The translations under genes were made by a program, and so were the position numbers. The notes under the pieces were generated by a model, which saw only the letters and a program-made list of their open reading frames with translations, had not been told where the DNA came from and did not search any database. This document shows, in pieces, positions 27,451-44,108 of a stretch of DNA of 44,450 bases; positions within the stretch are counted from its first letter, which is position 1, and the number at the start of each line of letters is the position of its first letter. Origin of the DNA: a virus; UHGV virus genome UHGV-0157893; one strand, given 5' to 3'.

Positions 27451-27917
27451 TCGCAAACGGCATATTCAACATCACGGCGGTTTACCAGGCCTTGCCACTT
27501 CTTACCGCCAGCGTATACCCAGCGTTTAAGCTGTGCGCACGCTTCTGATTTCTTGCCGTCATTGAGTAGCTTTAATAAGGTTGATGTTTTGAAGTTGGTT
27601 GCGCCTACGTTATAGGCGAATGAATAAAGTGCTGCGCGGGTAAAATCTGATACTTCGACTTTGATATATGGGTCAATCGCTTTTGCGGTCTTGTGTAGAT
27701 CTTTATTTAACAAAGCATCGCATTCTGATTGCGTGTAAGTCTTGCCCAACATGATGTCTTTTCCGGTGTGACCATAGCAAACAGTCCATACACCAACAAC
27801 ATCACGATAAGGATCGTATTCCACGCCCTCTAATGGCTTAATCATCACCGCCGCAATAGCGATCGCCCCACCAGCCGCCGCCGCAACAATTTTGTTTTTC
27901 AGCGATTGGCTAATCAT
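27426..27917 (-). CDS. SAR endolysin (T4-lysozyme-like, GH24 type)
   Basis: ATG 27917 overlapping holin stop; N-terminal Ala/Gly-rich weakly hydrophobic helix (SAR-like); catalytic-region [23 protein letters not shown]. Confidence 0.8.
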
Positions 27918-27918
27918 G

Positions 27919-28119
27919 TTACTTATTCCCCATTCGCGCGTCGTGTTCCTCTTGCGCTCGCTTGTTCTCCTGTGATTTAAAGTAATAATTAACGGCAAAT
28001 GTGCCAATGGTTGATAGGATACCCACGAAGACGGCAACGTCATTTATGGTTATCGCACCGAAAAAAGCGGTTACGGTCCCAGTAACATAAGCGCACGCCG
28101 CCCGTATTCTGTCGAACAT
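27919..28119 (-). CDS. Holin (pinholin-like, two TM segments)
   Basis: ATG 28119 with GGAGGT RBS; 66 aa; two hydrophobic helices and charged C-terminus; directly upstream of SAR endolysin. Confidence 0.7.
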
Positions 28120-28140
28120 AGATTTACCTCCAACAAAGCA

Positions 28141-28164
28141 AAAACCCGGCACGGGGCCGGGTAG
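28141..28164 (-). terminator. Intrinsic terminator just upstream of holin (tR'-like position)
   Basis: Minus strand reads CCCGGC-cccgt-GCCGGG then TTTTTGCTTTG, 20 nt before the holin RBS. Confidence 0.6.
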
Positions 28165-28226
28165 TTACAGTTTCGCATTGTTAGGTAATATTTTAATCTG
28201 TTTGTTTTCGACCAACAAATACGGCT

Positions 28227-28454
28227 TTAACGATAAGGGCCAAGCAAACGAACAAGCCATTCTTTGTATTTGGCGGCGACGTGTTTAGGTGCAAAATATC
28301 CTTGCACTTCCTTACCGCCTCGCCACTCCCTTCTAAATTCGCACTCGTTTTGATACTCCTTTCCGCTTTTACTATCAAGCCAGCAAGCAGGCGAGTAACC
28401 TTTTTCACTTCCGAACCGATGCCATATTAATGACAGCAAAATCATTTCCTCCAT
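28227..28454 (-). CDS. Hypothetical protein
   Basis: ATG 28454; 75 aa; an alternative overlapping frame (28193..28408) cannot be excluded. Confidence 0.35.
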   Translation of the reverse strand: MEEMILLSLIWHRFGSEKGYSPACWLDSKSGKEYQNECEFRREWRGGKEVQGYFAPKHVAAKYKEWLVRLLGPYR

Positions 28455-28475
28455 ACCGCCCCCACAAATACGGCT

Positions 28476-28652
28476 TTACGCAGTTCTGTATATCAGTCCG
28501 TTATCAAGCAATGTTTGCATGTGTTCGCGATCCATGTCGCTTAATTCCCAATAAGGAACATCTTCATTCCTTATCATCACCTCTTCGCCTCTTACCAAAT
28601 AGGCGATGTCAAATACCTTATGCAAATAGATGCCATCTTCGATCTCGTTCAT
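28476..28652 (-). CDS. Hypothetical small protein (58 aa), paralog of upstream gene
   Basis: ATGA overlap with upstream stop; MNEIEDGIY... shares the IEDGIY start with 28649..28831. Confidence 0.45.
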   Translation of the reverse strand: MNEIEDGIYLHKVFDIAYLVRGEEVMIRNEDVPYWELSDMDREHMQTLLDNGLIYRTA

Positions 28653-28831
28653 AGGTCGCTAACCTTTACCAGTTCACCAGCATCAAGAAATATTTTAATT
28701 GTTTCTCGCGTCGTCTCAATGATTGGCTCTACCCACTCACCACAGCCAACGCGGATGCGAATATCATCACCTTCTACGCGGTAAAACAACCCGTCAACTA
28801 CTGTTGCCGCGTATATGCCATCTTCAATCAT
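28649..28831 (-). CDS. Hypothetical small protein (60 aa)
   Basis: ATG 28831 with AAGGAG RBS; MIEDGIYAATVVDGLFYRVEGDD... Confidence 0.5.
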   Translation of the reverse strand: MIEDGIYAATVVDGLFYRVEGDDIRIRVGCGEWVEPIIETTRETIKIFLDAGELVKVSDL

Positions 28832-29046
28832 TTCTTGCGCTCCTTAATGGCTCGCATGATGTTAATACGCATAGCGTCACTGAATGCGTATATCGTAATG
28901 AAAGGCCAGAAGACTAGCTCGAACCAAATAATGCCGTCACTATCAACAGCTTTCTGAAAAGCGCCCATTAAAATGACGCCAGCCAGGTAAATTATAACTA
29001 CCGCAATAATAAGACATTCAATCATAATCATCGTCCTCGTCTTCAT
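28828..29046 (-). CDS. Small membrane protein
   Basis: Track start is TTG 29067; in-frame ATGs at 29064, 29046, 29031; one long hydrophobic helix IMIECLIIAVVIIYLAGVILMGAF. Confidence 0.45.
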   Translation of the reverse strand: MKTRTMIMIECLIIAVVIIYLAGVILMGAFQKAVDSDGIIWFELVFWPFITIYAFSDAMRINIMRAIKERKK

Positions 29047-29278
29047 GTTCAGCCATGAACTCATCAACTACGCGGTAAGTCACTGGCGGGATATATTCAA
29101 AGTCATCCGTATCAAGATCAAGCGTCCTGCTGTCGCCGTCGTCGTCCAGCGTATTCATACCTAATTCACCGAAAGGGCCGTACCCAATGTGGCCCAGGTA
29201 TTCGCAACCAACCGTAAAGCCAGGATATTCACCTTTACACCGGATTTTGTAAGGTTTATTTGATGCGCTCAATTTCAA
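29018..29278 (-). CDS. Hypothetical highly acidic protein (start uncertain)
   Basis: Track start is TTG; only in-frame ATG is at 29158; C-terminus DDDGDSRTLDLDTDDFEYIPPVTYRVVDEFMAEHEDEDDDYD. Confidence 0.35.
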   Translation of the reverse strand: MKLSASNKPYKIRCKGEYPGFTVGCEYLGHIGYGPFGELGMNTLDDDGDSRTLDLDTDDFEYIPPVTYRVVDEFMAEHEDEDDDYD

Positions 29279-29579
29279 CCCCTCCGTTTTCTCCTTCAGT
29301 CATTTTGTATTCCGCCACCAGTTCAGCCCCAATCAATTCCACTTCATCACCAGGGAATGGATTAAGTTTCAATGATACTAAGATAAAAAATTTAACGTGA
29401 TCTGCATTATCAAGATCTTTCACGTCAAAAGGAGGTTCAGATACGTGGTAGCATTTGACGCCAGCTTCGTCATCAGTGGCTACACGGAAACATACGCCAG
29501 GTTGTCCGGCGTACTGTCCCAATCTTTCTTCGTTCGGTAAAGTACCACGAAAAACTTTAACACTGGCAAATTTAGACAT
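29256..29579 (-). CDS. Hypothetical protein
   Basis: ATG 29579 with AAGGAG RBS; 107 aa. Confidence 0.5.
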   Translation of the reverse strand: MSKFASVKVFRGTLPNEERLGQYAGQPGVCFRVATDDEAGVKCYHVSEPPFDVKDLDNADHVKFFILVSLKLNPFPGDEVELIGAELVAEYKMTEGENGGVEIERIK

Positions 29580-29602
29580 TTGTTATTCTCCTTCGTAAGA
29601 AA

Positions 29603-29932
29603 TTAAAATTCAGCACCAGGTAAGCTACGCGCTTTATTCACCGCATCGTGTTTTAACGATAAACCAGCGCGATAATTCATAATACCCATATTGCCAACAG
29701 GTATTTCATTATTTTCTGCCTTTATTCTGAACAACTGGTTTTTAGTGAAGATCCTGTCACCATCAGTGATGTATAACCAGTCTCCACGCTTACCAACTAC
29801 AACATGAGATCGGCCTAAACTGTCTTTAAATTCATAATTGCAGAAAACATCACCTTTAGGCACTTCAACAAAACAGCACGCTATGAACTTATCACTTTTC
29901 ATAATTGCAACCTTCTGGTTTGATTTGGCCAT
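29603..29932 (-). CDS. Hypothetical protein
   Basis: Track start TTG 29995; ATG at 29932 with AGGGG RBS (alternative ATG 29902). Confidence 0.45.
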   Translation of the reverse strand: MAKSNQKVAIMKSDKFIACCFVEVPKGDVFCNYEFKDSLGRSHVVVGKRGDWLYITDGDRIFTKNQLFRIKAENNEIPVGNMGIMNYRAGLSLKHDAVNKARSLPGAEF

Positions 29933-30182
29933 CCGGCCCCTAGTTTTATTCGTCTTTGTCTCCTTTAAATCCCAAACACTCCGCGTATTCGTCAATGCTT
30001 AATGCTTCTTCACCTGGTGCCAGCAATTCAAAGTAGCGGGCGTATAGTTCAAAAACCCATGCCGGATATTTAGCGTTAGCGTTCATCTTCTTACCTCCCA
30101 TTCGTCTTTCCGTGGCTTATATGTAACAAAATGGCACTGCCTAAACAATGCCATTTCGTAAACTTTGTGTGGTAGATCACAT

Positions 30183-30440
30183 TTATTCCGGTTTACTACC
30201 TTCGCGAGCATGAAGTACAGCGATCTCACGGAAATCATGCACGATGCGATAAATATACAAGCCAGAGGCGTTATTGATATGGCTTGCATAAGCAAAATAT
30301 AACTTACCATCATCGCCAGTTATAGCCATTGCACCATCACCACCAGGCGCACCGTAAATCTGAACCCCGCAATAAACCTTACCGTCTTTGAATTTGTCGA
30401 GATCGCGAGTCTGAATTACATTAAAATATAAATGTTCCAT
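30183..30440 (-). CDS. Hypothetical protein
   Basis: ATG 30440 with AAGGGG RBS; start overlaps upstream stop (TGATG). Confidence 0.5.
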   Translation of the reverse strand: MEHLYFNVIQTRDLDKFKDGKVYCGVQIYGAPGGDGAMAITGDDGKLYFAYASHINNASGLYIYRIVHDFREIAVLHAREGSKPE

Positions 30441-30691
30441 CAGAAAACCCCTTTATAGTCTACCGTGTATTTTGCCACCAATTTCCATTCACAATAGTTT
30501 TCCATGTCGCGCGGCTGCCATCCTTTCATGCCTACAGCGCTCCGCGCAGCGTGACGGCGGCAATTGTCGTTAAGGTCTACAACACACCACGGCTGAAGGA
30601 CAAACATGTACTGCGCCTCGTTAACCAGGATCGCCATCTGCTTTCCCGTTGCCTTATCTTTCGCCCGGAAATAACTTACCCTGATTTTCAT
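30440..30691 (-). CDS. Hypothetical protein
   Basis: ATG 30691 with GAGGT RBS; 83 aa. Confidence 0.5.
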   Translation of the reverse strand: MKIRVSYFRAKDKATGKQMAILVNEAQYMFVLQPWCVVDLNDNCRRHAARSAVGMKGWQPRDMENYCEWKLVAKYTVDYKGVF

Positions 30692-30902
30692 TTTGATATA
30701 CCTCTATCAACATTTCTTCTTCCAGGTTAGCCGGACGTTTACGAAATATCCCGGCAAAAACCAGATCGTCGAGTAGGTCTTTACGCTTAAATAACCACTC
30801 TTTCATTATCACCCCGTCGTCACTGCGATACACGACGCCGTTTTTAAGAAAATAAAAAGTGTTTATGTCTGTATGGAGGTATAGATCTTCGTAAACGTCC
30901 AT
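30654..30902 (-). CDS. Hypothetical protein
   Basis: ATG 30902, 4 nt after upstream stop (MDVYEDLYLHTD...). Confidence 0.45.
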   Translation of the reverse strand: MDVYEDLYLHTDINTFYFLKNGVVYRSDDGVIMKEWLFKRKDLLDDLVFAGIFRKRPANLEEEMLIEVYQNENQGKLFPGER

Positions 30903-30906
30903 GATG

Positions 30907-31134
30907 TTAACCCTCGACCACTTCCAGCCCGCGCCCCTTGTCGCCAACGAAGTCTCCCAGGCTGAACGTATACGACCATGCAGGATTAATGTAATGATCA
31001 TCAGCGCCAGCGGCAATTAGGTCAGCACCGTTAATCATGCAAGTGACATTATCACTATGAACGACGTCAACCACCTTACCAACAACCTGTTTCAATGACG
31101 GATAACCGTGATCGTGCAAGAATTTTACTTTCAT
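30907..31134 (-). CDS. Hypothetical protein
   Basis: ATG 31134 with GGGGGA RBS; TAATG overlap with upstream gene. Confidence 0.5.
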   Translation of the reverse strand: MKVKFLHDHGYPSLKQVVGKVVDVVHSDNVTCMINGADLIAAGADDHYINPAWSYTFSLGDFVGDKGRGLEVVEG

Positions 31135-31364
31135 TAATCTGTCCCCCAGCGCTCAATACTGATTAAAAAGTCCCGGATAGCGTGGCGCTCGTCGCGTGTT
31201 GGTTTGCGCTTCCGGTAAATTTTAAAATCGAACCATGCCTTTTCTTGCTCAAAATCCAGATCGTAAGCAAGCGCCTCAATGTAACCGCATTCGTGATACT
31301 GGTACGCCACGCCAGCACGAACAAAAAAGCGGGTTTTATCCCGCTTGTGTTCATAGATACGCAT
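31134..31364 (-). CDS. Hypothetical protein
   Basis: ATG 31364 with GGGGTGA RBS (longer alternative from 31409). Confidence 0.4.
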   Translation of the reverse strand: MRIYEHKRDKTRFFVRAGVAYQYHECGYIEALAYDLDFEQEKAWFDFKIYRKRKPTRDERHAIRDFLISIERWGTD

Positions 31365-31374
31365 ATTCACCCCA

Positions 31375-31605
31375 TTACGCAGTTGTGTAGCTGTCCACCA
31401 GCTTTTCATCTTTCATTCTGGCAAGCTGTGCGATGTTCATCGTGTAGCCGCCATCTGAGAAAAGCCATTCCGCAGCCTTGCGACGAAAAGCAATATCATC
31501 ATGGTTACGTGTCCATGTAGCGATCACAACGCGTTTCCCGTTAGTGGCGAACATAGACAATTCATTATCAACCACGTCAATAGCCTGCCAGATTTTTAGC
31601 TCCAT
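31375..31605 (-). CDS. Hypothetical protein
   Basis: ATG 31605 with GGGGA RBS; 76 aa. Confidence 0.5.
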   Translation of the reverse strand: MELKIWQAIDVVDNELSMFATNGKRVVIATWTRNHDDIAFRRKAAEWLFSDGGYTMNIAQLARMKDEKLVDSYTTA

Positions 31606-31961
31606 GATTTATCCCCGTAGATCTTGAATAGTTCACACGCTTCCTGATTTTCAAATATATTCATATGCAGGTCACGCAGGCGGCGCATTGTGCGGAATCG
31701 CGGCCTGAACTCCTGGCTACGTTTAATGTATTTGCCGCCAATTGAATAAATATGCCCGTATGAGTACCATCTATTACCTACCCATATTTCATATTCTTTG
31801 CCTTCGTAATTAAATTTTATCGTTAGCTTGCCAACCTCAACTATTAACCCTTTATCAATGATGTCATTAAGCATTTCGTCCCATTCTTTGAGGAATGGTT
31901 GTTGATAAAAACCAAAAAGAGTATTTACAGCGTGGCAAAGGTAATCAATGATTATTTGCAT
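31596..31961 (-). CDS. Hypothetical protein
   Basis: Track start GTG 31976; ATG 31961 immediately after upstream stop. Confidence 0.45.
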   Translation of the reverse strand: MQIIIDYLCHAVNTLFGFYQQPFLKEWDEMLNDIIDKGLIVEVGKLTIKFNYEGKEYEIWVGNRWYSYGHIYSIGGKYIKRSQEFRPRFRTMRRLRDLHMNIFENQEACELFKIYGDKSWS

Positions 31962-31962
31962 A

Positions 31963-32184
31963 TTAATTACACTCACTCATTATGTAGTAAACGTTATCGT
32001 AAGCTATATTATCAGCATCTTCCTGTGTTATATATCTGGCATCAAAAAAGAAATCAGCATCGTGCCATATATGAAAAATATATCTCGCAAATTGGCGGCG
32101 GTGGCGCTTGCTGCGTGGTAGTATGTCAAATTCCATTAACGCTTTATCATATGCTCTTATCATGCGCTTACGGTTACTTTTCAT
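31963..32184 (-). CDS. Hypothetical basic protein, tandem paralog A
   Basis: ATG 32184 with GGTGA RBS; MKSNRKRMIRAYDKAL...DNVYYIM; about 45% identical to the adjacent upstream gene. Confidence 0.55.
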   Translation of the reverse strand: MKSNRKRMIRAYDKALMEFDILPRSKRHRRQFARYIFHIWHDADFFFDARYITQEDADNIAYDNVYYIMSECN

Positions 32185-32188
32185 ATTG

Positions 32189-32404
32189 TCACCACATCAT
32201 ATAATAAACGTTATCGTTAGCCACTTCGTCGGCTTGTTCTTGTGTTAATAGCGGTGCGCTTTCCATAAAAGCATCAGAATAATGCCACTCATAAACAAGC
32301 ATACGCGCCCATTTGCGGCGCTGGCGTTTATTGTGTCGCAGATCATCAAAAGCCTTTAATGCTTTGTCGTACGCCCTTACAAGGCGCTTGCGGTTACTTT
32401 TCAT
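32189..32404 (-). CDS. Hypothetical basic protein, tandem paralog B
   Basis: ATG 32404 with GAGGTG RBS; MKSNRKRLVRAYDKAL...DNVYYMMW. Confidence 0.55.
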   Translation of the reverse strand: MKSNRKRLVRAYDKALKAFDDLRHNKRQRRKWARMLVYEWHYSDAFMESAPLLTQEQADEVANDNVYYMMW

Positions 32405-32705
32405 TTTCACCTCTCAACATCCAATTTCTGTCACATTTAATTGCGAATACCTTAACAGGATCAGGGCCGAATAATGGATGAGTGATAGTTTTTACTTCGT
32501 ACCCAAAATAAGGAAGGTTAATAATCCTGTGTTTTTCGTGGTTGGCAGGGTATCCCCATTTAATAATCAGGCGTTCATATTCCCGCCCTTCCAGACGTTT
32601 ACGCCAATAGTCATTATAAAGCCGGTATTCCTCCACCTTCTTTCCAGTCCATATGGCGTGGAAATATTCCCCTTTCAGATTCAAATGCAGGTCTTTACTT
32701 GCCAT
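32394..32705 (-). CDS. Putative ASCH-like domain protein
   Basis: ATG 32705; LHLNLKGEYFHAIWTGKKVEEYR resembles ASCH/DUF3850 N-terminal motif (from memory, not searched). Confidence 0.4.
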   Translation of the reverse strand: MASKDLHLNLKGEYFHAIWTGKKVEEYRLYNDYWRKRLEGREYERLIIKWGYPANHEKHRIINLPYFGYEVKTITHPLFGPDPVKVFAIKCDRNWMLRGENEK

Positions 32706-32964
32706 CGCTATGATCCTGTAAACAGTCGTTATAGCCTTCAATGTATCCGGTTAATCCGGTGTTACTCACTGACCATTCAGCCGAACGGCGCTTGATGGCT
32801 TCGTCCATCGTGATTTCGCCACCCGGCCCGCCAGGCTCAATATATTTTTTTAAATCCCTTGCTATCCACGCCCTCAATTGTTGTGTATCACGGCACAACC
32901 GCGCGGATAATGTCAGGTCATTAACCAGCTTTGCAAATAGATGTTCTTTTAGTTTAGGCTTCAT
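32695..32964 (-). CDS. Hypothetical protein
   Basis: ATG 32964/32967 with GGGGTGA RBS. Confidence 0.45.
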   Translation of the reverse strand: MKPKLKEHLFAKLVNDLTLSARLCRDTQQLRAWIARDLKKYIEPGGPGGEITMDEAIKRRSAEWSVSNTGLTGYIEGYNDCLQDHSDGK

Positions 32965-33154
32965 CATCGTCACCCCGCTTGTAAATTTTGACAGGCTTAA
33001 TAGGGATGGCTGGCAATTCGCCTTCATTTAACGCGCTTGCCATACCCAATATTAAACGCGCTTCCGCGCCAGTGACTTTCTTACACCATGCGCCGCCTGT
33101 TTTATCTTCAAATAAGATAACGGCAAACTGATCGTTTATTTCCAGCTTATCCAT
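32954..33154 (-). CDS. Hypothetical protein coupled to Q
   Basis: ATG 33154 with GGGGTGA RBS; TAATG overlap with Q stop. Confidence 0.5.
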   Translation of the reverse strand: MDKLEINDQFAVILFEDKTGGAWCKKVTGAEARLILGMASALNEGELPAIPIKPVKIYKRGDDDEA

Positions 33155-33876
33155 TATTCACCCCGTGTCACTCGTTTGATTTCACTTTCCGCGCGGCCCT
33201 CTTCTTTGAATAGCTCCGCTATGGCGTCTTCATAGAAAACCCGGTATTTTTTCCACCAGGTTGATCGGCTTACCGGAAAAACAAGCTGATTAACGGCCTG
33301 ACGCACAAGATCTACGGGGAAACGCGAGTACCCGCGCCCGCCGCAATGCTGGCACGTTTTGAACACTGGCATTTCCGCCGCTTCGCTGGCTGCTTTATCC
33401 GGTACTTCGCCACGGCCCTTGCATTGTTTACAATGATTGAGAACCTTCCCATGCCCCTTGCATTTTTTGCAAAGGTGTTTTTCTCCGTATTCGTCAAACG
33501 TAAATTTATATCCGCCGCACTCCATACAAGTTTTTTCCGTCGCGGCACTCTGGCAATAATCCCGAAACGCGAAAACGGCAACAAGAATAATGAGATCATT
33601 GCGTTTAGCCTCGTCCAGTTCCATAACGTATTCATAATCTTTTGCCATAGCCTTTAAACGCTCTATAAGCAAAACTACGGCCTTATGTTTTTCGGCTTGT
33701 GATAGTTCCATCTTTCCCAGAAAAGCGCTATAACCAAGCTCTACGCGCGATTGCGCCATACCAGCGGCAGTTAGCGCATCCGTAGTATTAAGCGCATCCG
33801 GGGACGTGCCCCGGCTTTCATCTGACAAACGCGGTGATTTTGGGAAGTGGAATTTAAGAATAGATTCCAAATTCAT
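33154..33876 (-). CDS. Q: Late gene antiterminator Q (phage 82 / phi80 type)
   Basis: ATG 33876 with GGGGGT RBS; N-terminus MNLESILKFHFPKSPRLSDESRG matches the remembered phage 82 Q start; multiple CxxC zinc-finger pairs. Confidence 0.8.
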   Translation of the reverse strand: MNLESILKFHFPKSPRLSDESRGTSPDALNTTDALTAAGMAQSRVELGYSAFLGKMELSQAEKHKAVVLLIERLKAMAKDYEYVMELDEAKRNDLIILVAVFAFRDYCQSAATEKTCMECGGYKFTFDEYGEKHLCKKCKGHGKVLNHCKQCKGRGEVPDKAASEAAEMPVFKTCQHCGGRGYSRFPVDLVRQAVNQLVFPVSRSTWWKKYRVFYEDAIAELFKEEGRAESEIKRVTRGE

Positions 33877-34058
33877 TATTTACCCCCGTAACGTGCAACC
33901 AGTCTTTTGCGATCAGATATTGATTGCACTAGCTTTCTTTCAAACTCTTTCAGTGCAAGTAATTCTCGCATGTGAAAAGCCTGAATTTGTCGGACTGTGG
34001 CTAAATCACGCTCGTCGCGCTGAATATCTATTTGCAGATCTTTAATTTCGTTTTTCAT
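33876..34058 (-). CDS. Hypothetical small coiled-coil protein
   Basis: ATG 34058 with GGTGG RBS (track start GTG 34070); between rusA and Q. Confidence 0.45.
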   Translation of the reverse strand: MKNEIKDLQIDIQRDERDLATVRQIQAFHMRELLALKEFERKLVQSISDRKRLVARYGGK

Positions 34059-34060
34059 TG

Positions 34061-34462
34061 TTACCACCACATATTAGTCAAGTATTCGTTAATATCCGGT
34101 AACAGGTCGCCGCGTTCGCGTACCTTGATAAACAATCGCCCTCTTTTTACCTTCCGGCAGCGGACAAATTTCATTGCGTCAACCTGGCTATCATCAGCCC
34201 AAAAACCGGAATAAGTTATAGCGTCAAATAATGCCTTCCCTACATTGTCAATATCGCGGCGTCTGTTATCTGGCGGTGCAATATACACCGTTATTGATAG
34301 CCTACACTTAAGATTAATTTTCAGATTAAGCAGTTTTATAATGTCTTTTACCTGCTCCCTGTATTCCTTACCTTCCTTGCTTATATAGTGGAAACCGCGC
34401 GAATGCCGGTAATATTTATTGTTCGATGGCGGGTAAGGCAGGCTAAAAGTATATTCATTCAT
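34061..34462 (-). CDS. rusA: Holliday junction resolvase RusA
   Basis: ATG 34462 (ATGA overlap with ninG stop); 133 aa; PPSNNKYY and DIDNVGKALFDA are RusA-type motifs. Confidence 0.8.
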   Translation of the reverse strand: MNEYTFSLPYPPSNNKYYRHSRGFHYISKEGKEYREQVKDIIKLLNLKINLKCRLSITVYIAPPDNRRRDIDNVGKALFDAITYSGFWADDSQVDAMKFVRCRKVKRGRLFIKVRERGDLLPDINEYLTNMWW

Positions 34463-35064
34463 GCTGCCTTTCTCCTTAAGGCGTCCAATTTAGCCTGATA
34501 GACTTTTATGATCTCCTTGCATTCTTCGATCGCCCATTTATGAGTTTCGTTGTTGTTCTCCAGCGCTTCCACCCTGGCAAGGCCAATTTTCCTAATCAGC
34601 GCTGGGCGATATGCTTCTATGTTGCCATCTAATGTCTGGTTGCAGTGCCTGCATTGTTTGTGGCAATTATCCTCGTTAAAACGAAGGTGCCCGGCGGCGG
34701 CAACCGTTCTATAGTGTCCGGCATCTGCTCCGCATTGTTCGTAATAGTAAGTCCCGCATGATATGCACGGCTGACCCGCGTCACGTTCGCGGATATAGGC
34801 ATTAAATACCGCTTGTGCCTGCTTCAACCAATAACTACGCGGATTTAACTGCTTCCGCTTCCGGTTGCGTTCTTCCCGCTGGCTATCACGGCGTTTCTTC
34901 CGTTCCATAGCCTTCATAGCCTTCTCACGGTCGCGGCATAGCTGATCAAACTTCAGCTCTTCCAGACACTCATCACTGCACCACGTTTGATTGTGATATT
35001 TAGGCTCAAAAAAAACGCCGCAGCACTTGCAACGGCGTCTTATTGGTTTTTTAGGGTTCTGCAT
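34459..35064 (-). CDS. ninG: NinG / Rap-like recombination protein
   Basis: ATG 35064 with GGGGTGG RBS; aligns by eye with lambda NinG (RRRCK, PRSYWLKQAQ, PCISCGT, DAGHYRT, RFNE.N.HKQC). Confidence 0.8.
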   Translation of the reverse strand: MQNPKKPIRRRCKCCGVFFEPKYHNQTWCSDECLEELKFDQLCRDREKAMKAMERKKRRDSQREERNRKRKQLNPRSYWLKQAQAVFNAYIRERDAGQPCISCGTYYYEQCGADAGHYRTVAAAGHLRFNEDNCHKQCRHCNQTLDGNIEAYRPALIRKIGLARVEALENNNETHKWAIEECKEIIKVYQAKLDALRRKAA

Positions 35065-35078
35065 AAAAACCACCCCTA

Positions 35079-35255
35079 TTATTTTTGATTCTCTGTTTCG
35101 TTCAGCCTTTCGGTGTGTCCGGCCCTTAGCCAATGATCTAAGCATTCGTTGCACTCGTTACAGCCTCCTTTCTTTGTGCTGCATACATTGCACATTGCAC
35201 GCATGACGCTTTCTCGTTCATAGTCGTCATGCCATTGGTAATTATCAAAAGACAT
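35079..35255 (-). CDS. ninF: NinF-like small Cys-rich protein
   Basis: ATG 35255 with AGGGAGGGAG RBS; 58 aa with CxxC...CxxC pattern; upstream of ninG. Confidence 0.5.
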   Translation of the reverse strand: MSFDNYQWHDDYERESVMRAMCNVCSTKKGGCNECNECLDHWLRAGHTERLNETENQK

Positions 35256-35376
35256 AATGCTCCCTCCCTTTAAGGTGATTTCTACGCATTTCAGCGCTGC
35301 CGGATTTTTAAAGAGCATTTCGTTTGCTTGAAGTATACAAAATGGATACACGTAAACAAGACGAAAAGCGCCATTA

Positions 35377-38162: not shown

Positions 38163-38366
38163 TTAAACGTCCTCAATTACCCCGCCTTTCACGCGCTCTT
38201 TAATATCCCATACGTGAGGCTTGCATATTTCCTGATAATAGTGATCCGGCCTGCTGCCGAAATACCATTTGCCATCCATATAAAAATAAACGCCAGAATA
38301 ATTTCCTGGCGCTGCCTTTGTTGCTGCTTCTGGAATTTTCCATTCCATGTAATGTTTAAATTTCAT
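38163..38366 (-). CDS. Hypothetical protein
   Basis: ATG 38366; 67 aa; no clear RBS. Confidence 0.4.
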   Translation of the reverse strand: MKFKHYMEWKIPEAATKAAPGNYSGVYFYMDGKWYFGSRPDHYYQEICKPHVWDIKERVKGGVIEDV

Positions 38367-43803: not shown

Positions 43804-44108
43804 GTCGCTACCCTATAACCTCAAAAAGTTTGATGCAAGTCACAAAACGTGTATTTTAAGCCTTGATCTTAAAATTCCATTTTGTAAACTTGCAGACAAG
43901 GTAAGGCCATACTTGCAAAGACGCAAGGAAAAAGATAACGGAAGGCACAAAAAGGCACTTACCTTAAGCTCTTTAAAAATCCGGTGTCGCTGCGAAGCGA
44001 AAAACAAATATCACGCAACGGCGGGATCTGTTGAGCGGTCAGTCACTGCTATCTAATGCTAATGGGATGCCCGCCCGCGCGTTCACTCTAACCATAGGAG
44101 AAAACACG

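Follow-up and report, generated by a model that had tools for sequence, protein, structure and literature searches.

Small genes between Q and the holin gene of an mEp021-like coliphage: a putative early accessory region downstream of Q

The virus genome UHGV-0157893 was analyzed as one stretch of 44,450 nt (the window), in which all the genes of interest lie on the minus strand. A first-pass annotation, made from the nucleotide sequence, had drawn attention to positions 28,165-33,154, between the gene for the late antiterminator Q and the lysis cassette, where it described a dense block of about 18 short open reading frames (ORFs) typical of anti-defence or host-takeover islands. The dense array is indeed present on the minus strand, although its gene number is higher: we called 20 genes, from g1 (32954-33154) to g20 (28227-28454), with products of 46-121 aa. 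The interpretation that we favor, with some reserve, is that the block makes up the last, promoter-distal part of the delayed-early rightward operon in an mEp021-like phage, a nin/ea-type accessory region that follows Q instead of preceding it. The candidate late promoter on which Q would act is found directly before the holin gene.

The block DNA is 85-92% identical to that of phages mEp010, mEp013, mEp021, mEp044, mEp515, mEp554 and MagusPhagus, over 33-85% of its length. Matching prophages were found in 35 of 5,426 complete E. coli genomes, where coverage reached 90%, compared with a best coverage of 85% among phage records. By these similarities the window is an mEp021-like (mEpimmI) temperate coliphage or E. 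coli prophage. The mEpimmI phages are Nus-dependent temperate phages that encode a CI-like repressor, a Q-like protein and the N-like antiterminator Gp17, whose action takes place at three nut sites (PMC11893012). Their prophages occur in gut E. coli and, among the human faecal isolates of a 2025 study, were as prevalent as lambdoid phages; that paper's sole mention of content such as the block is of 'variable regions' with flexible genes (PMC11893012). The orthologous block genes are labelled 'hypothetical' in the record of every public relative.

Gene content of the block

In the order of transcription on the minus strand, the locus comprises NinG (34459-35154), RusA (34061-34462), a small ORF, Q (33157-33876), the block, and then the holin, lysozyme, spanin and terminase genes. 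The distance from Q to the holin gene is 5,034 nt, compared with 430-680 nt in lambda, P22, ST104 and phi80, and we therefore agree with the earlier description of this stretch as unusually long for a phage with a lambda-type Q. Other phages of this kind leave no more than about 200 nt free after Q and have the holin gene 0.4-0.9 kb away; PHB10 has a similar gap after Q, and its record names no holin.

The block is about 96% coding. Start codons were chosen from their Shine-Dalgarno context and from alignment to PHROG families, and with these starts 12 of the 20 junctions (that of Q with g1 included) overlap, by 1-38 nt, which bears out the many start/stop overlaps noted previously. About 172 nt of the 4.9 kb are non-coding, and 96 nt of these separate g12 from g13. 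The ORF of 130 aa that had set the upper size limit in the first-pass annotation is the longest TTG reading of g14, for which a start at 29932, giving 109 aa, is likelier. We did not count the ORF at 30083-30313, which overlaps g12, among the genes. No tRNA genes were found in the window, and an Rfam scan of positions 27800-34200 returned a single sub-threshold match attributable to chance.

Gene presence and order were followed in 56 loci (the window, 12 GenBank/RefSeq loci and 43 IMG/VR contigs), and the holin-proximal region was aligned across 13 genomes. The ratio of nonsynonymous to synonymous changes (pN/pS) was calculated between the window and its orthologs in 12 related phages and prophages, so that the window is one partner in every comparison and the values are not independent of one another. 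In a PHROG scan of g1-g19, 16 of the 19 genes matched a family (E-values between 1e-21 and 1e-63), in each case one of unknown function. The pN/pS values of the 19 genes with usable orthologs lie between 0.07 and 0.46 and agree in direction, next to 0.15 for Q and 0.08 for the holin gene. The sole ortholog of g5 is identical to it and gives no ratio; this gene is supported by its PHROG match and by its 57% identity to g4. Because of the PHROG matches and the pN/pS values, the ORFs of the block are real genes under purifying selection, and a reading as chance ORFs is ruled out. The coding signatures whose absence would have spoken against the first-pass description are present. The genes are as follows, numbered in the order of transcription.

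g1, 32954-33154, minus: 66 aa; phrog_35000 (E 5e-40); pN/pS 0.18; in 49/56 blocks
g2, 32695-32964, minus: 89 aa; phrog_29262 (E 3e-53); pN/pS 0.21
g3, 32394-32705, minus: 103 aa; weak ASCH/PUA-like fold resemblance
g4, 32189-32404, minus: 71 aa, basic; phrog_8758; tandem paralog of g5; family in 52/56 blocks
g5, 31963-32184, minus: 73 aa; phrog_8758; second copy of the g4 family; identical copy only in UMNK88 among the 12 relatives
g6, 31596-31961, minus: 121 aa; phrog_16975; in 55/56 blocks; invariant RPRFRTMRRL motif
g7, 31375-31605, minus: 76 aa; phrog_38280; in 56/56 blocks; pN/pS 0.14
g8, 31134-31364, minus: 76 aa; in 55/56 blocks; match to phrog_30442 starting at residue 16 of the longer ORF
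g9, 30907-31134, minus: 75 aa; phrog_5009; in 56/56 blocks; pN/pS 0.10
g10, 30654-30902, minus: 82 aa; in 56/56 blocks; 91% identical to mEp021_41 (Gp41, annotated 'virion structural protein')
g11, 30440-30691, minus: 83 aa; phrog_38609; in 56/56 blocks
g12, 30183-30440, minus: 85 aa; variable cassette, in 18/56 blocks; pN/pS 0.23
Intergenic terminator-like hairpin between g12 and g13, 30119-30153, minus: 15 bp with paired A- and U-tracts; -19.9 kcal/mol, z -4.8
g13, 29946-30086, minus: 46 aa; phrog_22232 (E 4e-35); strong Shine-Dalgarno sequence GGAGGT; pN/pS 0.11
g14, 29603-29932, minus: 109 aa; pN/pS 0.28 (10 orthologs); in 41/56 blocks; no PHROG or Pfam match
g15, 29256-29579, minus: 107 aa, acidic; phrog_23107; pN/pS 0.46, the fastest-evolving gene of the block
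g16, 29018-29272, minus: 84 aa; phrog_25234; very acidic, net charge -16; pN/pS 0.16
g17, 28828-29025, minus: 65 aa, hydrophobic; phrog_10061; maximum 19-residue hydropathy 2.87
g18, 28649-28831, minus: 60 aa, acidic; phrog_15318; tandem paralog of g19
g19, 28476-28652, minus: 58 aa, acidic; phrog_15318; family in 54/56 blocks, in one to three copies
g20, 28227-28454, minus: 75 aa; optional cassette, in 4/12 relatives and a coding sequence of the Prokaryotic Genome Annotation Pipeline (PGAP) in 3 of those; pN/pS 0.17

Few of these products offer a clue to function. The product of g3 had been called ASCH-like in the first-pass annotation, and a remote fold resemblance stands: g3 shares a PUA-like beta-barrel fold with solved ASCH proteins, and 17 of 33 g3 homologs give sub-threshold ASCH matches (best E 0.0045). 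Its own score against ASCH (PF04266) is 13.9 bits, below the Pfam gathering cutoff of 21.2, and we regard the relationship as a weak ASCH/PUA-like resemblance by predicted fold. As the sole fold-level clue in the block, it possibly points to binding of RNA or of modified nucleosides. In Shiga toxin (Stx) phage 933W (NC_000924.1, 2148-2555; L0064/L0065, in the ea region), one tblastn alignment takes in the C-terminal third of g2 together with the whole of g3, and g2 and g3 may correspond there to one contiguous or fused frame beside EaA/DUF551. The AlphaFold2 model of g6 is a confident one, with a predicted local distance difference test score (pLDDT) of 80.7, and Foldseek found no structure in the PDB that resembles it meaningfully (best E 1.2). 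The product of g17 is probably a membrane protein. Homologs of g10 fall into 52 protein clusters, all from E. coli (mEpimmI prophages), and its ortholog in mEp021, Gp41, is among the proteins that mass spectrometry identified in CsCl-purified virions (PMC11893012). A resemblance of g10 to RegA has been suggested in the literature. A demonstrated housekeeping function among orthologs would have told against the first-pass reading as a host-takeover island; for g10 such a role is hinted at by the ortholog found in virions.

Q, the candidate late promoter and the early operon

The Q-like late antiterminator shares 34% identity, across 99% of its length, with both lambda Q and P22 gp23 and is, by this similarity and its Pfam match, assigned as a lambda-Q homolog. 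It has 240 aa, compared with 207 aa in lambda Q, and its residues ~117-183 contain four CxxC motifs with a sub-threshold match to the DnaJ central zinc finger (E 6.5e-6). The features that bound the block are listed here.

Q-like late antiterminator, 33157-33876, minus: 240 aa; Pfam PF03589 (E 1.6e-28)
boxA-like site GCTCTTTAA (nutR2-like), 35308-35316, minus: upstream of NinF-NinG-RusA-Q on the same strand, about 2 kb before Q
Candidate late promoter pR' with qut-type pause element, 28177-28218, minus: unique pattern, conserved
tR'-like intrinsic terminator, 28139-28162, minus: seven-bp GC stem and T-tract; -16.9 kcal/mol; about 25 nt before the holin ATG
Holin gene, first of the lysis cassette, 27919-28119, minus: annotated as holin in relatives; Shine-Dalgarno sequence GGAGGT; ATG at 28119

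In lambda, Q loads onto RNA polymerase that has paused just after the late promoter, where a -10-like element lies within the first transcribed bases, and a terminator follows. Since Q belongs to the lambda family, the same paradigm is expected to apply in the window, and parts of this late module are annotated in the P22 and phi80 records. The candidate pR' has a -35 hexamer TTGTTG (28218-28213), a spacer of 17 nt, a -10 hexamer TAAAAT (28195-28190), the heptamer ATTACCT and the pause-like hexamer AACAAT (28182-28177, predicted +1 to +6); 14 nt further on come ACCCGGCCCCGTGCCGGGTTTTTGCTTTG and then the Shine-Dalgarno sequence and ATG of the holin gene. The layouts compare as follows.

Lambda: TTGACT-17-TAAATT-6-AACGAT; terminator not annotated in the record
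P22: TTGACT-17-TAAATT-6-AACGAT; annotated P late and qut, with t late at +31 to +59
phi80: TTGCAT-17-TAGATT-7-AACGCT; annotated terminator, further downstream
ST104 (closest Q relative outside the group): TTGCAA-17-TATCAT-6-AACAGT; hairpin and T-run further downstream
Window: TTGTTG-17-TAAAAT-7-AACAAT; terminator starting some 20 nt past the predicted +1

The pattern TAAAWT-N7-AACRAT is found a single time in the 44 kb of the window, with 0.05 occurrences expected, and the element is present exactly once per locus in all 56 loci, always directly before the holin gene. Its distance from Q varies between 1.9 and 6.7 kb (median 5.4 kb) and is 4.9 kb in the window. The 13 aligned genomes hardly differ in the ~91 nt that run from the promoter spacer up to the holin ATG, with variation upstream that includes the -35, and this holin-proximal stretch is the only sizeable conserved non-coding sequence. 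The records of mEp021 (TERM_5, score 100), mEp010, mEp013 and mEp044 list the tR'-like hairpin as a terminator. A terminator named t5 is reported as experimentally demonstrated (PMC11893012), and we take it to be this holin-proximal one. Together these features suggest that the element before the holin gene is a functional Q-dependent late promoter. The first-pass annotation had placed nothing but the late promoter region between Q and the holin gene in lambda-type genomes; the candidate for such a region is kept here next to the holin gene in 56/56 loci, and its separation from Q had been missed.

At its other end the block is continuous with Q. The Q stop codon (33154-33156) overlaps the ATG of g1 (TAATG), leaving no intergenic space, and an overlap of this form (TAATG or TGATG) is found in about 50 of the 56 loci, whichever family follows Q. 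Promoter-like sites within the block are not in excess of those in shuffled sequence (11 found, 14 expected). The boxA-like sequence GCTCTTTAA occurs three times in the window (35308-35316 on the minus strand, and 38195-38203 and 43968-43976 on the plus strand), with 0.32 expected. The nutR2 site of mEp021 has been placed downstream of the methyltransferase gene, which matches the position of the site at 35308-35316 (PMC11893012). The upstream boxA-like site, the Q/g1 overlap and the lack of a promoter excess argue for placement of the block in the early operon, and the position of the candidate late promoter next to the holin gene, away from Q, argues that the block is not a set of late morons. 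Early expression of the block is what these features would predict.

Under the model that we favor, RNA polymerase would start at the early promoter, become termination-resistant through the action of the N-like Gp17 at the nut sites, cross NinG, RusA and Q, and then pass unbroken into the ~20 small genes, with g1 translationally coupled to Q. The array would end at a lambda/P22-type late promoter directly ahead of the holin gene, where Q, made from the same early transcript, would act in trans. The block would therefore be expressed together with Q, before the lysis and structural genes. Its g6-g11 backbone is common to essentially the whole phage group; optional cassettes are gained and lost at gene boundaries, where tandem duplications also occur.

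Several observations weigh against this model, in which both the promoter function and the early timing are read from sequence alone. The -35 of the holin-proximal element is weak (3/6 matches) and variable, being TCGCGC in 3 of the 13 aligned genomes, and the equation of t5 with the holin-proximal terminator follows from the name TERM_5 in a GenBank record. A weak look-alike of the late promoter, GTGACA-16-TAAGCT-7-AACGAT, is found at the Q/g1 junction (33149-33131, minus) and in 39 of 56 relatives, and its pause-like hexamer AACGAT is identical to that of lambda. In addition, two strong terminator-like hairpins lie inside the block and could divide it into separately regulated parts. One of them, AAGCGGGATAAAACCCGCTTTTTTGTT (31327-31346, minus; -18.8 kcal/mol, z -5.7), is within the coding sequence of g8 and identical in 48 of the 56 loci; one variant (GCGCG...CGCGC) has a pair of changes that compensate each other, suggestive of selection for the RNA structure itself. 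The other fills the sole sizeable gap within the block, between g12 and g13, and is present with variants in 42/56 blocks; ARNold terminators are annotated at this site in mEp010, mEp044 and mEp554.

Backbone, cassettes and alternative readings

Across the 56 genomes the blocks contain 8-28 genes (median 22) drawn from ~32 recurrent families. Gene order is strictly collinear, and the families vary by presence or absence alone. Four families are universal (g7, g9, g10 and g11), g6 and g8 are each present in 55/56 blocks, the g18/g19 family is found in 54/56 (one to three copies) and the g4/g5 family in 52/56. Because this backbone is universal and its order rigid, at least g6-g11 presumably serve the phage's own development.

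Both tandem paralog pairs proposed in the first-pass annotation were recovered: g4 and g5 (57% identity) share phrog_8758, and g18 and g19 (33% identity, E 1e-6) share phrog_15318. Links between hhalign profiles of adjacent variable families, at 96% both for families 14 and 21 and for family 1 (that of g18/g19) and family 21, indicate that tandem duplication and divergence extend beyond the two pairs. Weaker links, of family 21 with family 26 (that of g12; 63%) and of family 14 with family 30 (60%), are suggestive at most, and it is possible from such profiles that g12 is a member of a diverged paralog set.

The sole discrete insert in the block is g20, for which no promoter of its own was found. 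It is flanked by a 15-nt direct repeat, TAAAGCCGTATTTGT, at ~28478-28464 and ~28229-28215 on the minus strand, and the downstream copy contributes part of the putative late-promoter -35, an arrangement that looks like the footprint of a cassette insertion. Morons typically carry a promoter and a terminator for each insert; here the genes overlap or abut. Three relatives, including L018 (IMG/VR UViG_3300001919_000001), carry a PAPS-reductase cassette in the middle of the block, and its product (239 aa, PF01507, E 4e-8) is both the sole protein longer than 130 aa and the sole above-threshold Pfam match in any of the 56 blocks. Erwinia phage Midgardsormr38 also has a gene of the PAPS-reductase type, located before Q within its nin region, and g3 homologs adjoin EaA in Stx phages; these two occurrences point to a gene pool common to the block and the classical early accessory regions.

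That most of the small proteins inhibit host immunity or redirect host machinery early in infection, with cassette turnover reflecting an arms race, is the reading closest to the first-pass annotation, and we consider it unlikely. The genes are small and probably early, the cassettes outside the backbone are variable with tandem duplication and divergence, and g15 and g14 evolve relatively fast, with pN/pS of 0.46 and 0.28. The acidic products of g16 (net charge -16), g18 and g19 would also fit nucleic-acid mimics, and Pfam and NCBIfam searches with all 20 proteins found nothing above threshold, whether housekeeping or toxin domains. Against this, the concatenated block proteins gave no match in PADLOC, no dedicated set of anti-defence hidden Markov models (HMMs) having been run, and phmmer with the concatenated 1,604 aa found nothing at E<=10 among all PDB sequences, a set assumed to include the solved anti-defence proteins. 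The rigid collinearity, the 6-8 universal or nearly universal families, the strong purifying selection on most genes and the virion association of the g10 ortholog (PMC11893012) likewise speak against it. A literature search for anti-defence work on such regions returned nothing specific. Taken together, these sequence searches have given no positive evidence yet for an anti-defence role, which they neither support nor exclude.

A more elaborate version would join this idea to the displaced promoter. In the mEpimmI phages the Q-utilisation site may have been shifted by kilobases from Q, giving rise to a 'post-Q' early locus that would serve as a counter-defence and host-takeover toolkit of ~30 uncharacterised small-protein families, with expanding diverged tandem paralogs, a group-specific g10 product packaged in virions and delivered with the DNA, and conserved terminator-like hairpins that grade expression along the array. 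We offer it as a speculation to which we give little credence.

In a third explanation the genes would be late-operon morons as in Stx phages, with the true late promoter at the Q/g1 junction and the holin-proximal element acting as a terminator with a conserved leader. The look-alike at 33149-33131 does lie directly after the Q stop codon, in the position expected from lambda, P22, phi80 and ST104, whose late promoters are all within ~60 nt of Q. Yet it falls within the coding sequence of g1, its -10 matches at 3/6 positions, and no T-tract follows within 70 nt, the nearest terminator-like hairpin being that of g8, some 1.8 kb further on. Of the 56 relatives, 17 lack the look-alike, among them mEp021, a plaque-forming phage with a 97% identical Q, and we rejected it as an essential late promoter on this account. 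The far better conservation of the holin-proximal element leaves the moron explanation highly improbable.

Least probable of all, in our judgment, is a lysogenic-conversion cassette, some or all of whose genes would be expressed from the prophage to the benefit of the host (in superinfection exclusion or membrane functions, for example), because the small, probable membrane protein g17, the internal hairpins that could delimit independent units and the presence of mEpimmI prophages in gut E. coli (PMC11893012) are set against a number of promoter-like sites that does not exceed that of shuffled sequence, genes packed in a single orientation continuous with Q, with stops that overlap the next starts, and a single discrete gene, g20, that lacks a promoter of its own.

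Placement of the block at the end of the early operon, which we prefer, has consequences for both biology and annotation. A preference of lambda Q for action in cis is an old genetic observation. If the promoter assignment is right, this phage group is a natural test of whether a lambda-type Q must be encoded beside its target, as Q would then act over 2-7 kb, with a series of translationally linked genes in between. The block also brings together, in compact form, ~30 small-protein families without known function, and the probable early status, together with the division into universal and optional genes, provides a guide to which of them to study first. For annotation, the lesson is that genes between Q and the holin gene are not automatically late-expressed morons.

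Comparison with known systems

The closest parallels are the nin region of lambda (ninA-ninI, between P and Q) and the nin/ea regions of P22, which likewise consist of small, packed, often overlapping early ORFs that are variable and mostly of unknown function. Those regions are read by N-type antiterminated polymerase, and the nut-like boxA upstream suggests that early transcription in the window is the counterpart. They also share a gene pool with the block, as ASCH-like and PAPS-reductase genes are found in such regions elsewhere. The difference is one of position: nin lies between the replication genes and Q, whereas the array in the window lies downstream of Q. The window has ordinary nin genes as well (NinG and RusA, upstream of Q), and Q would simply not be its last early gene.

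In the Stx phages 933W and Sakai, pR'-tR', tRNAs, stx, nanS-p and other morons lie between Q and the holin gene. These phages resemble the window in having several kb of accessory genes between Q and the lysis cassette, but they keep their late promoter beside Q and have the inserts within the late transcript, whereas in the window the promoter-like element is beside the holin gene and the inserts precede it. Unlike these phages, the window has no tRNA genes and the block has no match to a toxin domain.

Anti-defence clusters such as anti-CRISPR loci and the early anti-restriction genes of T4 and T7 share with the block small early proteins, some of them acidic, as well as cassette turnover and tandem paralogs. 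The block differs in having no recognised member or marker gene, a rigid order and a universal backbone, and the resemblance is one of style only.

Among published mEpimmI phages, the segments mEp021 gp38-gp45, mEp010 gp51-gp73 and MagusPhagus CDS0066-0090 are orthologous to the block and collinear with it, at 85-92% DNA identity over 33-85% of its length; the combination of cassettes g5, g12 and g20 in the window is fully covered by no phage record. Like the late module of lambda and P22, the window combines a Q homolog with a -10, an AACNAT-type pause element 6-7 nt beyond it and a short intrinsic terminator ~20-45 nt past the predicted start, as annotated for P22. In lambda and P22, however, Q adjoins its site, and in the window the two are 4.9 kb apart, the -35 is weak and variable, and Q carries four CxxC motifs in a DnaJ-type pattern. 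Orthologs of the block are already deposited, uncharacterised, and the separation of Q from its candidate target promoter is the sole unusual feature of the locus.

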